64,000 nucleotides of DNA from Eledone cirrhosa (GCA_964016885.1 OZ024743.1:194556001-194620000), one strand, 5' to 3'. Shown: positions 1 through 37,074, numbered from the stretch's first letter. Notes: a model not told the origin generated them from the letters alone. Program-made: numbers and translations.

Positions 1-1748
1 ATATATATATATAATATAAATATATATATATAATATAAATATATATATATATATATATATATACATATAATATATATATATATATATATATATATATACA
101 TATAATATATATATATAATATAAATATATATATATAATATAAATATATATATATATATATAATATAAATATATAATATATATATATATATATATATATAT
201 ATAATATAAATATATATATATATATATATATATATAATATAAATATATATATATATATATATATAATATAAATATATATATATATATATATAATATAAAT
301 ATATATATATATATATATATAATATAAATATATATATATATATATATATATATAATATAAATATATATATATATATATATATATATAATATAAATATATA
401 TATATATAATATAAATATATATATATATATATATATATAATATAAATATATATATATATAATATAAATATATATATATATATATATATAATATAAATATA
501 TATATATATATATAATATAAATATATATATATATATATATACATATAATATAAATATATATATATATATATATATATATATATATATACATATAATATAA
601 ATATATATATATATATATATATATAATATAAATATATATATATATATATATAACGAAGGAAATGTGGTAAGGAACCAGGTGGACCATAACGCACCAAAGT
701 ACTCAATACTTGAGGTAGTAGAGTGGGTAATAGGAACCAGTAAGACCCCGACAGCTGAGCTCAAGCCGTTTCGACGGCTAATCCCAGAATTAGCCGTCGA
801 AACGGCTTGAGCTCAGCTGTCGGGGTCTTACTGGTTCCTATATATATATATATATATATAATATAAATATATATATATATATATATAATATAAATATATA
901 TATATATATATATATAAATATATATATATATAATATAAATATATATATATATATATAAATATATATATATATATAATATAAATATATATATATATATATA
1001 TATATATATATATACATATAATATAAATATATATATATATATATATATATACATATAATATATATATATATATATATATATATAATATAAATATATATAT
1101 ATAATATAAATATATATATATATATATATATATATATACATATAATATATATATATATATATATATATATACATATAATATATATATATAATATAAATAT
1201 ATATATATAATATAAATATATATATATATATATAATATAAATATATAATATATATATATATATATATATATATATAATATAAATATATATATATATATAT
1301 ATATATATAATATAAATATATATATATATATATATATAATATAAATATATATATATATATATATAATATAAATATATATATATATATATATATAATATAA
1401 ATATATATATATATATATATATATATAATATAAATATATATATATATATATATATAATATAAATATATATATATATAATATAAATATATATATATATATA
1501 TATATATATAATATAAATATATATATATATAATATAAATATATATATATATATATATATAATATAAATATATATATATATATATATAATATAAATATATA
1601 TATATATATAATATAAATATATATATATATATATATATAATATAAATATATATATATATATATATATAATATAAATATATATATATATATATATATATAT
1701 ATATATATATATATATATATATATATATATATATATATATATATATAT
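1..1748. repeat. Compound (TA)n microsatellite with recurring TAATATAAA interruption (minisatellite-like), interrupted at 653-840
   Basis: Direct reading; the YI-rich ORFs at 761-1863 are artefacts of this repeat. Confidence 0.95.
653..841 (-). mobile_element. PLE-type fold-back remnant: 77-nt tail plus perfect 53-bp inverted repeat containing the 3' half of a hammerhead ribozyme
   Basis: Arms 730-782 and 789-841, loop CCCAGA. The arm reads GAAAC-GGCT-tgagctc-AGCT-GTC (799-821), i.e. hammerhead stem III with a GUC site. Flanked by (TA)n on both sides. Confidence 0.75.
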
Positions 1749-2448
1749 AGAGAGAGAGAGAGAGAGATGTACACAAACATACATATAAAAGGTATATATA
1801 TATATGTACATATATACATAAATACATTTGAATATTTATACACTCACGCAAACAAATAGACAAATGAATATGTGTGTGTGTGTATGTTTAATATACATAT
1901 ATAGCTGAAGTATATGTTAAGCAAGCGCGCGTTTTCAACCTTAACACCACACATCACCACCACATCCAGCAACAGAAAACATTAATACCCGCCAACAATA
2001 ACATTAAACACAATGATGTAAATGGCATCATTTCAAATTAGACTTTAGTATATATTTCGAGATTTTCCTCCTGTGGATGAGTAATGCTCTAAAATTAGAT
2101 GGCATGAGTATAAAGTGTTAAGCTCATAGATCAACATCAATCGGCTATACACTGGTTGTGAATTGAAATGGCATGGAATATGTAAAAAGGAAAATCATTC
2201 GCTATTTATAATATGGAAAACAGTATTGAGAAAGCATGCAGAATAAAACAAGCAAATAAGCGAAAAAGATATAAATCAAGGGAAAAAGAAATGAATATAA
2301 TTAATATAATATAAACTATCAGCAATGAAAGGAGAAAAGCTTAACAGAAACGTTGTTGCGGGTACAATAATAGCTCTTGTTTCAGGAATACCCTGGCTCA
2401 GATAAAGGAGAATTCTTGGACATCTCATGTTGTAAACTATAGGGCTAA

Positions 2449-2952
2449 TTGTGATTTCTAATTTAGGCACAAGACCAGTCATTTTTGTTTCCGTTGTTGG
2501 TTGTGAGAGAGGGGTGGGTCAAAGTCGATTTATATAAACCGTAGTACGTGAGTAGTACTTTATCTTATCGGCCACGGAAAGATGATAAGCAAAGTTAACT
2601 TCGGCAGGATTTGAACTCAAAAGGTAAAGAACAGTGAGTAAATGGTGAGAAACATTTTGTTCGAAACTTTAATGATTCTGCCAATTCACAGCTTTTACTA
2701 TAGGTCGAATAATCCCTGCACTGGATCAATAAATATTGGTTTCTGATTTAGGTACAAAGCCAACAATTTTGGTGGATCGGCAAGTCGATTAAATCGACCG
2801 AGTGAGCGACTGGCACTTTATTTTATCGACCCCATAAGGATAAAAAGTAAAGTTAACCTCGGCAGGATTTGAACTCAGATGGTAAAAAGGCTTGTACTCT
2901 ATGATAGAAAGCATGTTGTCCGTTGCTCCATCGATACTGCCAATCCACCACC
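2449..2952 (-). mobile_element. Two copies of the abundant tRNA-derived SINE with a Meta-like central domain (2449-2692, 2736-2952)
   Basis: Shared consensus ttgtttctactttaggcacaaggcc...tttatcgacccc...aaagttaacctcggc.ggatttgaactcag...ctgccaatccacc; the minus strand gives A-box- and B-box (GAGTTCAAATCC)-like motifs. Confidence 0.85.
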
Positions 2953-4154
2953 CTACTGGATTTCTCTATACCAAAAAAAATTGTATACGTTCAAAGAGAT
3001 GATAGACTGGGAGACTTAGGTACGCCGTTTTAAGGTCAACATGAAAGGAAATATTATACAAATTAAATCACGTTGTTCTCGTAGGGAATATAAATAAAAT
3101 GTTTGGCATGTCAATGAATCTAATCCTGTGTTTACAACAACAAATATGAATTATGAATCAAGCACAATAATTAAAGCATTTAGTGTTAGCATTGTTGTAT
3201 ATACTTAGAAGTCCGGTATGTTGGTCGTAAGTATATAATAGCGGAGAACAGAAGTCAAGATAAAAGCATTTTGGGTTAAAATCATTGTCGTGTTATGTTA
3301 CACGATAATCTATATAGACGCAATCAAGTGAAACTCTAACTCTCTCTCTCTCTATCTATCTATCTCCCCCTCTCTTTCTCTCTCTTCCCCTCTCTCTCTC
3401 CGTCTCTCTCTTTATATATATAAATACAGTATATATAAATATATATATATATATATATATATATATATATATATATATATATATATGTATGTATCTGTAT
3501 GTATATATATATATATATATATATATATATATATATATAATTTAAGTGTTTATACATAAAATGTATATTACCTACAACACACACAACATATATATATATA
3601 TATATATATATATATATATATGTGTGTGTGTGTTTGTGAATTTGTGTGTGTGTGTGTATCTAAGTATACATGTATACAAAAATTACTATTCTTTCATATT
3701 AGCCCCACCTCACATAAAGGTTAAATGTATCAAATTAAACTTACATCAGTACCGGAAATATTAATATAACATAATTTCCGGTATGTCTGACAGCCCAATG
3801 CATCGATATCAATGTTAAACGCGAATACTAAAAGTCTTGCTCAATATCACCATCAGTAAAAAGCTCTTAAAAGACTTCCAAAGAGTTCTCATTGTATTTA
3901 TATAGGAGTCTGAGGCATAGTTACTGTTTATTTAATATTACAATGATTCGTGAGTAATTTTTAGATTGAAAATGTGTTGCATACATCTAAAGATAAATGG
4001 ACAGAAATATACAAAAATAGTCAAATAGTAGTAGGTGGTATATAATCCGGCTATGGATATTATTGCTAGTCAATTGAAGAACGGAAAATAAACACGAATG
4101 ATTCATTAGCGTTGTGAAAATAATAGAGGAGAAACAAATATAAAAGAGTTAAAA

Positions 4155-4373
4155 GAGGCTGCTGTACTTCGGGCCGAGAAAGGTAAACGCTCCAAATATC
4201 TATCGCTCACCAACAGGCTTGCGGTCGAGCCCGTAGAGATTTCTGGTGTCCTTGGCCCTAGGACCACCTCCCTTCTCACCAACATCAGCATAGAGTTGGC
4301 TAACCGCAGGTGTGAGACTCGCGTGCTCGAATGGCTCTTACAGTGCGTCTCCCTCACCATCCTTCAGTCCAAC
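4155..4373 (+). mobile_element. Fragment of a CRE-clade-like non-LTR retrotransposon (RLE C-terminus)
   Basis: Translates as RAEKGKRSKYLSL...EPVEISGVLGP...EWLLQCVSLTIL, the AE-K-KY...P...G..G...WL.Q..S pattern of CRE RLE domains; homologous to 21740-22025. Confidence 0.65.
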
Positions 4374-4559
4374 ATTAACCCTATCAAATAAGACTGGAAC
4401 ATAATTCTGAAATGACATCTTATATAATAAAGCTTTAGATAAGTCAATATTGCAGCGTTGTTATACACGTCAGGTCGTGAAGGTTTTTCGAGTGGATGAT
4501 TTGTTTCGCTGTGATAAGCAAAAATGAGTCACGTTAGCGTTGGTAAGTTCTGAATCTCT

Positions 4560-35820: not shown

Positions 35821-36180
35821 TCGTTTTGCAAGGTTTTTGATATGAAATCGCGTGTCGCAACTAATATTTGGTGTGGGTGATATTGTTATAATGATATTGC
35901 AAGATATAAAAATGGCGTAGGCATTAAAATACAGCGGGAGGAAATATAATAGTACCACCGAGGATGTCACAGATGTGTGCCGAAAGAACTTTGATGGATT
36001 ATATATATATATTTATATCTGTATTTGGTCAATCAATGGTAAACCTTGATTTCCTGAATTATTAACTATGGAGATATAAAAGATACAAAAGCTAAAACCA
36101 ACCCAAATCAAATAGTGAGTGTGTTCTATTATTACTTCTGGCAATATTATTATAACAATATAACTCTCCCCAAATATAAC
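35821..36180. mobile_element. Old fold-back remnant with ~43-nt tail
   Basis: About 35864-35900 is an approximate reverse complement of 36141-36177; (TA)n flanks. Confidence 0.45.
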
Positions 36181-36251
36181 AATATATATATATATATATA
36201 TCTATATATATGTGTGTGTGTGTGTATATGTATATATATATATGTATATAT

Positions 36252-36811
36252 AATTAGAAATATAAGTTATCGCCGTATTTTGACTAAATAAATTATTTAG
36301 CCTGATAGTAGGCTTAAGAACTCTCGGAGAAATGGAAAAAGATGAGTATTGACGAACATGGGAGTCGAACCCACATCTGCGGTTATCCAGACCACTGTGC
36401 TACCATTACACCAACACATCACCCGTGTTCTTCCATTCAAATTAGAAATCTTAACCCCACTATCAGGCCAAATAATTTCTTTAGTCAAAATACGGCGAAA
36501 GCCTATATTTCTAATTTAAAACTCGCTCGCTGTTTCGAAAATATTCTTACTTGACATTACACTTGCTAAGATTATAGCTTCTAATTTGAATGGACGAAGA
36601 CGGGTGATGTGTTGGTGTAATGGTAGCACAGTGGTCTGGATAACCACAGATGTGGGTTCGACTCCCATGTACGTCAATACTCATCTTTTTCCATTTCTTC
36701 GAGGGTTCTTAACCCCACTATCAGTCTAAATAATTTCTTTAGTCAAAATACGGCGATAGCTTATATTTCTAATTTCAAACTCGCTCGCTGTTTCAAAAAT
36801 ATTCTTACTTG
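36252..36811 (+). mobile_element. tRNA-containing inverted/tandem repeat element in (TA)n
   Basis: Inverted unit 36252-36447, partial forward unit 36449-36554, full forward unit 36579-36811 with 37-nt tail (36775-36811) absent from the inverted copy. Confidence 0.8.
36606..36676 (+). tRNA. tRNA-like sequence (probable pseudo-tRNA/Pol III cassette); mirror copy at 36350-36420, minus strand
   Basis: Cloverleaf: acceptor gatgtgt/gtacgtc (G-U rich), D arm gtgt/gcac with TGGTGTAATGG A box, anticodon arm gtggt/accac with loop CTGGATA, T arm gtggg-TTCGACT-cccat; TTTTT at 36686-36690. Confidence 0.65.
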
Positions 36812-36827
36812 ATATATATATTTATAT

Positions 36828-37074
36828 GAAGTATTTCCGTCGAAGGGTAAAAGAAGGGAGAGTGCTCTATGTATGCTACAGGGCTATTTAATTATGTAGT
36901 AAAACAACACAAAACAATTATTCCATTTACCAAGGTTTTGACGAAGACAGGCGATCTCAACAGAGACATCTGAAATCATTCTGATGGACGATTTCAGTCG
37001 TCTCTGTTGAACTTTCCTGCGCTCGTGAAACTTTTGGTAAATGTAATAATTGTATTGTGTTGTTTATTACATAA
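36828..37074. mobile_element. PLE-type fold-back remnant: ~64-nt tail plus diverged ~86-bp inverted repeat
   Basis: Arms about 36892-36977 and 36990-37074; (TA)n flanks. Confidence 0.7.
36977..37043 (+). ncRNA. Degenerate type I hammerhead ribozyme
   Basis: catt-CTGATGG-acga...tcgt-GAAAC-ttttg-GTA-aatg; one core mismatch (A9 to G). Confidence 0.55.

Follow-up and report, generated by a model that had tools for sequence, protein, structure and literature searches.

The 64,000-nucleotide (nt) stretch of the Eledone cirrhosa assembly GCA_964016885.1 analysed here (OZ024743.1:194556001-194620000, called the window) carries eleven short islands set in (TA)n repeats and named after their approximate start positions. 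These islands belong to a known kind, i.e. ends of Penelope-like elements (PLEs) of the Hydra clade together with non-autonomous tandem repeats, and do not constitute a new system. Their inverted arms follow a simple rule: a two-armed insertion almost always has one fixed outer end of a type called A and one of a type called B. It is probable that the islands are 3' ends of Hydra PLEs and passengers devoid of an open reading frame (ORF), inserted into (TA)n, with arms laid down by a dimer of the reverse transcriptase (RT)-endonuclease (EN) from the two hairpins of one RNA. The available text of PMC8557442 ascribes the tail to endonuclease resolution and names the origin of inverted arms and tails in PLEs as open, a question for which a young family with thousands of insertions and intact ORFs of 809 amino acids (aa) gives this rule. 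No earlier statement of the A+B rule or of the twin hairpin was found in the literature searched, which lay outside Repbase and most subscription papers.

Two fixed ends and a twin hairpin

Genome-wide searches covered the 3.0-Gb assembly, with 40 copies scored per family search. In every family, two outer ends are fixed, end A being the end of the tail and end B lying about 26-150 nt upstream. In most families, the RNA continues past A and B with TA-like letters, 2-5 nt of which can pair to a (TA)n primer. The combination of ends was read in 40 loci taken in list order from a search with the EN of family 32123, so that the ends themselves were not selected upon. All 26 loci with two contiguous typed arms combine A and B. 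Single-armed copies account for 11 of the 40 loci, ten ending at B and one at A; the end is B in each of the seven that are flanked by (TA)n left and right. The longer arm is the B arm in 16 of the 26 pairs and the A arm in the other 10, and four of the 26 A arms consist of tail sequence only, beside B arms of 2-3.6 kb.

The same pairing is found in otherwise sampled copies. Unselected DNA and flanking sequence gave 36 pairs, of which 31 are A+B, four B+B, and one A+A (p=6e-6 against 0.5), in a census made without families 9717, 36828, and 10855. Miniature copies of 32123 (minis) counted genome-wide comprise 980 A+B, 22 A+A, and 18 B+B, and the three pairs of the 653 parent are all A+B. The arms meet through overlaps of 1-5 nt in 11 of 22 junctions and through fillers of 5-108 nt in the other 11 (1 of 23 was unresolved), several fillers being visibly copied from nearby element sequence. 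At three loci (L007, L020, and L027), about 100-110 bp of unrelated sequence has been captured at the centre of 32123 minis.

In all seven families tested, the two arms of an insertion resemble one another more than they resemble copies at other loci. In long copies, arms diverge by 0.7% within an insertion versus 1.6% between loci, and subfamily alleles are found in both arms 45 times versus 4 times in one arm (19 versus 3 in minis). Private changes are mostly one-armed (19 versus 4 in minis), which counts against wholesale gene conversion without excluding conversion.

A hairpin motif, RCTC-N(9-18)-GAGY-RCT, starts 7-12 nt 3' of B and occurs again 3' of A in three Hydra parents. Copies bearing it after B number 86 of 90 for 32123, 105 of 107 for 653, and 4 of 4 for 7934, for a background of 0.00165. 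Among 56 copies of 653 that read through end A, 49 show it beyond that end. In the three parents alike, the hairpin 3' of B is closed by an A-U pair and the one 3' of A by a G-C pair. Four families outside the window display the motif at the same distance from B, and the tail of family 36828 carries it as well. It also stands just before the ORF in loci L246 and L261, and in a degenerate form in L229. Read by eye, published Hydra consensi from coral, sea cucumber, and copepod contain it: Hydra-2_Amil and Hydra-2_Ajap have it in their 3' tails, Hydra-1_Ajap has two copies ahead of its ORF, and Hydra-1_Crog carries a compensatory GCCC/GGGC form, likewise ahead of the ORF. The hairpin is a candidate cis element conserved across four phyla.

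Autonomous parents, ORF-less tandems, and hammerheads

Families 653, 7934, and 32123 are truncated ends of autonomous Hydra-clade PLEs, because their longer copies run into ORFs encoding an RT and a GIY-YIG endonuclease. For 7934, ORF pieces lie in 7 of 18 other loci, and two parents (L257 and L258) include an inverted 5' arm, a pseudo long terminal repeat (pLTR), the ORF, a long 3' untranslated region (UTR), and a pLTR with tail. For 32123, locus L273 joins the island to an RT-EN frame; among 150 scored matches of the EN search, at 97-100%, eight lie in an 821-codon open frame, and the 809-aa ORF is intact in L312 and L338. The EN is found upstream in 11 of 20 loci of the 653 parent, 18 of the 20 carrying a full hammerhead with a U3-A8 core, and in L352 the tail continues into an ORF. 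The ORF of the 7934 parent, in pieces, is 54% identical to the 809-aa protein over 308 aligned positions. Families 31886 and 36828 are probably Hydra too, a diverged relative of the former reaching a Hydra ORF (L229); no ORF-bearing parent was found for 36828 or 35821. In the window, a tblastn search for a Hydra-type ORF was blank; an earlier note on this DNA had seen no PLE RT or GIY-YIG ORF there. A Hydra ORF fragment lies about 3-4 kb ahead of the window start, and of 60 unselected 10-kb stretches, 10 contain diverged fragments that are about 32-51% identical to the 809-aa protein.

Each of the three parents has a single ORF with RT and C-terminal GIY-YIG domains, called from motifs. Their predicted membership of the Hydra clade rests on diagnostic protein motifs. 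SDKTNNLY, where DKG is changed to DKT, is found in both the 7934 and 32123 parents, and an N-terminal RWT, RWR, or RWK across three families (RWR also in the published Hydra-1_Crog). The CxCX5C linker is represented by CNCRIKNKC and CNCRNKSNC, and the CxxC..E / N..CxH signature by CNLCLNE...ICLH and CDLCIEE...CCRH; there is no CCHH, and one Cys lies within the GIY-YIG core (by eye). A canonical hammerhead near the 3' end and insertion into (TA)n are likewise as in Hydra. Pfam returned no relevant family for pieces of the three parent ORFs, and a protein database search with P0001 gave four unnamed matches at 36-39% identity. A Naiad PLE was rejected, as the EN is C-terminal and not N-terminal and the hammerheads are canonical in the three parents.

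Five families are ORF-less tandem monomers: 9717 (period of 322 bp), 10855 (about 370-450), 11987 (318), 35190 (about 430), and 36252. Four of them (9717, 10855, 11987, and 35190) display the anatomy of retrozymes as judged from sequence, namely tandem units of 150-450 bp that lack an ORF and contain a complete predicted type I hammerhead, and no contiguous partner ORF was found in their fetched loci. Family 653 also has a tandem derivative of 233 bp, keeping only the 3' half of the hammerhead, and no hammerhead was seen in 36252; neither is filed as a retrozyme because a unit holds no complete hammerhead. In the 36252 family, a tRNA-Ser-like segment was called in 14 of 15 loci (L131-L145), together with PLE-type A and B ends, and this family is possibly a PLE passenger driven by RNA polymerase III. 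Families 35190, 10855, and 35821 seemed linked to nearby Hydra ORFs, but (TA)n or unrelated DNA intervenes and the insertions are distinct.

A PLE origin is virtually certain for the families with the Hydra motif and highly likely for the others; the anatomy of the six families without the motif suggests that they depend on PLEs. These six may use other PLE clades. ORF pieces with Neptune/Poseidon-like and Naiad-like motifs, read by eye in L132 (-), L142 (-), L036, L088, and L022, are candidate partners for them. The earlier note had proposed a PLE origin, which holds for the three families with RT and GIY-YIG in longer copies; the system is not a new one, Hydra PLEs with hammerheads and (TA)n targets being described in the available text of PMC8557442. 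Of the extreme truncations or truly non-autonomous units that it envisaged, both kinds are present, as Hydra ends and as ORF-less tandems.

Type I hammerheads were sought with a structural scan requiring stem I, core, stem II, GAAA, stem III, and UH. Intact ones are predicted with cores at 8121(-) and 8906(+) in island 7934, 9906(-) in 9717 with one stem I mismatch, 12041(-) in 11987 with the U3-A8 core TTGATAA, 32307(-) and 32450(+) in 32123, and 35379(-) in 35190. Decayed ones lie at 36981(+) in island 36828 and near 35960(+) in 35821, the latter read by eye, and both are intact in family copies. Over the eleven islands, five are intact, two decayed, and one half (653, 3' half only), close to the six plus a half counted earlier, a count that had missed a further type I hammerhead at 16108-16192 (+), with its core at 16118(+). 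The latter sits between (GT)n and (CT)n runs and has one other copy within the fetched DNA. No hammerhead was found in the window copies of 10855, 31886, and 36252. Rfam reported no hammerhead at E<=1, its matches being confined to tRNA-like ones and to miRNA noise from microsatellites. The half ribozyme of 653 is a truncation inside stem II of a full hammerhead; a type II/III reading became needless once the parent with the full hammerhead was found.

In 664 kb, 43 hammerhead motifs were counted versus 0, 1, and 2 in three shuffles. The exact 35190-type and 32123-type patterns have 27,836 and 14,109 genome-wide matches, with 0 for either reversed control. Density ranges from 0 to 20 per 100 kb across fetched stretches. 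Extrapolated from the 35 hammerheads counted in 600 kb beyond the window, the genome may hold about 10^5, many of which would lie in inverted repeats that could form double-stranded RNA. As the earlier note had anticipated, pairings covary among copies: in 11987, C-G replaces U-A as the 3-8 pair of the core (the minor alleles being found in 6 and 7 of 32 copies), two stem II pairs are altered on both sides in 35821 (4-5 of 17), and one stem I pair is seen as U-G, G-U, and A-U in 35190. No frequent hammerhead variant was seen in family 9717. Hammerhead cleavage is at most a possible general 5' boundary of the arms: in loci retrieved with queries of similar length, the arms of 10855 and 31886 begin about -7 to +10 nt from the predicted cleavage site, but those of 32123 do not cluster there.

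Origin of the two arms

Priming from both target strands is very likely, and the use of a single RNA as template for both arms is moderately probable. The order B then A is inferred, as are the displacement of a strand, the pairing of two RTs in a dimer, and what the hairpins do. In the proposed mechanism, an RT-endonuclease dimer would bind the two copies of the hairpin on a single transcript, both being supplied by a tandem or a 5'-pLTR transcript. The hairpin 3' of A would never be copied, so that solo inserts would lack it and a full template would have to be a tandem or a 5' pLTR-ORF junction. The endonuclease would cut both (TA)n strands, one target 3' end priming at B and the other at A with the help of the 2-5 nt of TA-like sequence. 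The RT primed at A would trail on the same RNA by strand displacement, often stalling, and the head-to-head cDNAs would be joined by end joining through short overlaps or templated fillers. The tail would be the A-B interval, and the hammerhead would usually be copied uncut. RT loading at the 5' pLTR/ORF junction would copy the leader alone, giving tiny hairpins like those of the window, whose fixed 5' end could reflect a start site or a separate master.

A stricter version is put forward tentatively, as it could well prove wrong. The reaction would be an obligate two-primer one on one RNA, in which two copies of a clade-wide hairpin load the two RTs of a dimer, that at B before that at A. Bidirectional target priming would then directly yield both the inverted pLTR and the tail, with no ordinary second-strand step, and retrozyme-like passengers, among them the one with a tRNA-like segment and no ribozyme, would be tandem to regenerate the loading site 3' of A rather than for RNA circles.

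Both strands might instead prime on two separate RNAs within one dimeric particle, one subunit being set at A and the other at B, the RNAs being paired for instance through the palindromic loop III of the hammerhead. Such a loop is present in 39 of the 43 hammerheads of the 664 kb, and in all five cases tested an RNA dimer is predicted to be favoured over two monomers, by 3.8-12.1 kcal/mol; either arm may be the longer one, and a protein dimer is predicted in the available text of PMC11167929. This explanation is nevertheless unlikely, given that subfamily alleles are common to both arms (45 to 4) despite the existence of several subfamilies, that both arms fall in the same loop haplotype class in all 35 head-to-head pairs (first 100 listed matches, by eye), and that equal RNAs give no ground for a strict A+B pairing. 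It stays conceivable if both RNAs stem from one source locus.

Self-priming has been proposed for PLE structures (PMC3846280). Applied here, one primed cDNA would fold back on itself and the endonuclease would resolve the hairpin, leaving the tail on one side (PMC3846280, PMC8557442, as far as their available text goes). The arms do come from one source, some centres lie on palindromes such as loop III, and a later deletion at the palindrome centre could give uneven arms. Yet a copy of the A-primed strand cannot exceed its template, and B is the longer arm in 16 of 26 pairs; a copy of the B-primed strand cannot hold the tail, and four A arms are tail-only, with L273 pointing the same way. Long B arms and tail-only A arms together are beyond a single-strand fold-back, which is therefore quite improbable. 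Still less probable, and indeed hardly credible, is a movement of whole hairpins as miniature inverted-repeat transposable elements (MITEs) or by rolling-circle copying of RNA circles. The 32123 minis are uniform in size, arrays of permuted tandem monomers fit circles, and circular retrozyme RNAs are described in other animals (PMC7229834, available text). However, the ends are asymmetric, the centres vary from copy to copy, long copies include RT and EN, and both the 233-bp monomer of 653, with its half ribozyme, and 36252, with none, still form tandems. Circles may serve as templates for tandem families. A DNA transposon or MITE, into which the earlier note asked whether the consensi would extend, is contradicted for the Hydra families, where the minis are A+B 980 times versus 40, partners encode RT, and long copies are retroelements. 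Target duplications are unreadable within (TA)n.

Several observations weigh against a paired use of A and B on one RNA loaded through two hairpins. The motif follows A in just 10 of 33 non-TA junctions of 32123 (others uninspected), is degenerate in 31886, and is not at the ends of 9717, 10855, 11987, 35190, 35821, and 36252, for which no partner RT was linked in the fetched loci. Three of the 40 EN-selected loci could not be typed, and A+A or B+B copies exist (40 of 1,020 minis and 5 of 36 unselected pairs). The mini count concerns one size class and could reflect few masters, and in 9 of 22 junctions the overlap is just 1-2 nt, close to what chance would give. Allele sharing is weak in old families, with both-arm versus one-arm counts of 13 versus 23 in 10855 and 5 versus 9 in 36828, as well as 4 versus 5 in 11987 and 11 versus 8 in 9717; besides, it fits one RNA, two RNAs of one locus, or gene conversion alike. 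Lastly, the Poseidon PLE studied in the available text of PMC11167929 showed no start-site strand bias and no target homology.

If true, the mechanism of one RNA with two hairpins would account at once for the inverted pLTR and the tail, for the abundance of tiny hairpins, and for why tandems are needed. The in vitro format described in PMC11167929 is directly applicable to the A+B rule and to the hairpin.

The islands of the window and related systems

All eleven islands lie where the earlier note had placed them, with local inverted or direct repeats after microsatellite masking. None is single-copy: each is a family with 243-3,472 candidate copies in genome-wide searches. The shared plan proposed earlier (microsatellite, one-sided tail, inverted and/or tandem repeat, microsatellite) describes most of them, with four departures (11987, 9717, 10855, and 35821) detailed below, and the tail-side arm reads toward the tail wherever tail and ribozyme are both present, as had been claimed.

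Island 653 (653-840) has head-to-head arms of a Hydra PLE 3' end, the A arm with tail on the left (sense -) and the B arm on the right. Each arm bears a 3' half hammerhead, at about 745-772 (-) and 799-826 (+), and the tail holds the hairpin motif at 696-724 (-), 8 nt 3' of the B end. A second, identical 653 copy, seen in L267 (the 6.7 kb that precede the window) and L052, is located 1,071 bp upstream within the same TA-rich array, which is a local duplication. Island 7934 (7934-9002) derives from a Hydra PLE 3' UTR/pLTR, with an A arm at 7934-8591 (sense -; tail at about 7934-8024), a B arm at 8592-9002 (sense +), and the motif in its tail at 7993-8017 (-), 7 nt 3' of the B end. Island 32123 (32124-32550) corresponds to the terminal 257 nt of the young autonomous Hydra family; its arms are A at 32124-32380 (sense -) and B at 32381-32547 (sense +), with the motif in the tail at 32174-32202 (-), 10-12 nt 3' of the B probe end. 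In island 31886 (31888-32086), the B arm is on the left and the A arm, with a partly deleted tail, on the right; the arms join at the predicted cleavage site, a complete hammerhead being present only in longer family copies.

Island 9717 (9719-10160, -) is tandem only, with about 1.4 units of the 322-bp ORF-less monomer and (CT)n flanking one side. Island 10855 (10855-11333) is an A+B fold-back split by a common repeat inserted in its left arm (10887-11069); its arms start just 3' of the predicted cleavage site of the family hammerhead, hence the absence of the ribozyme there. Island 11987 (11988-12563) is made of head-to-head arms of the ~318-bp monomer, adjoins (CT)n, and has no tail in the window copy. 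Four families then lie end to end within 1.9 kb (35190-37074), every one set in (TA)n that flanks its neighbour, a nesting common among fetched loci. Island 35190 (35190-35771) includes the ~430-bp ORF-less monomer and a short inverted arm. Island 35821 (35821-36180) has a short A arm with the tail on the left, devoid of ribozyme, and a long B arm on the right with the decayed hammerhead. Island 36252 (36252-36812) has a ~260-270-bp monomer in tandem and inverted copies, with tRNA-like segments at 36350-36420 (-) and 36606-36676 (+). Island 36828 (36828-37074) has its A arm on the left, with a tail of about 57 nt, and its B arm on the right.

Other repeats of the window include a non-LTR retrotransposon remnant at about 41980-44760 (+), with RT-like coding and a restriction-like endonuclease motif (by eye), after which a 99-bp direct repeat (44838-44936 and 45087-45185) flanks a (TACA)n run. 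A GC-richer element resembling long interspersed nuclear elements, with apurinic/apyrimidinic endonuclease (APE) and RT-like coding (by eye), lies at 58068-63734 between two 303-bp direct repeats of 97% identity. A 340-430-bp repeat ending in (CATA)n is found at 5753-6091, 37337-37762, 41487-41912, and 45993-46352. An abundant 180-220-bp repeat, presumably akin to the octopod repeats resembling short interspersed elements, occupies about 15 places (e.g. 10887-11069, 18853-19264, and 29292-29516), often as tandem pairs.

Among known systems, twin priming of L1 also lets both target strands prime on one RNA and gives an end-joined inversion. L1 differs in that its two cDNAs are copied from parts that do not overlap and in that its second site is opportunistic; in the elements described here, the arms overlap and both sites are fixed.

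The closest relatives are Hydra PLEs, for which PMC8557442 describes hammerheads, (TA)n targets, pLTRs, inverted 5'-truncated copies, and a tail at either end; its supplement lists Hydra-1_Obim of Octopus bimaculoides with (TA)n targets and a canonical hammerhead. The parents reported here share with this clade the single RT and C-terminal GIY-YIG ORF, DKT, RW(K/R), CxCX5C, CxxC..E, and N..CxH, as well as the 3' hammerhead, (TA)n targets, partial tandems, inverted 5'-truncated copies, and one-sided tail. They differ by a size of about 3.9 kb or more with a long 3' UTR, whereas published ones are 'generally <3 kb', by tails of 57-150 nt instead of 30-40, and by many diverse families and U3-A8 hammerhead cores; neither the A+B rule nor the twin hairpin is encountered in the available text of PMC8557442.

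The Poseidon PLE PAc of Anolis carolinensis cuts and extends both target strands in vitro, its RT starting at two internal sites that bracket the tail and requiring RNA 3' of these sites, and its insertion does not need hammerhead cleavage (PMC11167929). Two tail-bracketing start sites and the extension of both strands would be common to PAc and to the families described here, along with the need for RNA beyond the start sites and an insertion independent of hammerhead cleavage; the results on PAc speak for the proposed priming from both strands. The available text of that paper is silent on how the sites are paired within an insertion and on the origin of inverted arms, and it proposes second-strand synthesis; in contrast to PAc, TA-like letters and a repeated hairpin motif follow each site here.

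In cephalopods, Penelope repeats and 235 hammerhead matches are reported from the giant squid (PMC6962438). Metazoan non-LTR retrozymes (PMC7229834), whose link to PLEs is treated in bioRxiv 10.64898/2026.07.22.740005, resemble the ORF-less families in their tandem monomers of 230-430 bp, type I hammerhead, many copies, and proposed derivation from PLEs, as far as the available text of both goes. Unlike them, the families described here form head-to-head arrays with PLE-like A and B ends, and include one monomer with a half ribozyme and another with a tRNA-like segment and no ribozyme.

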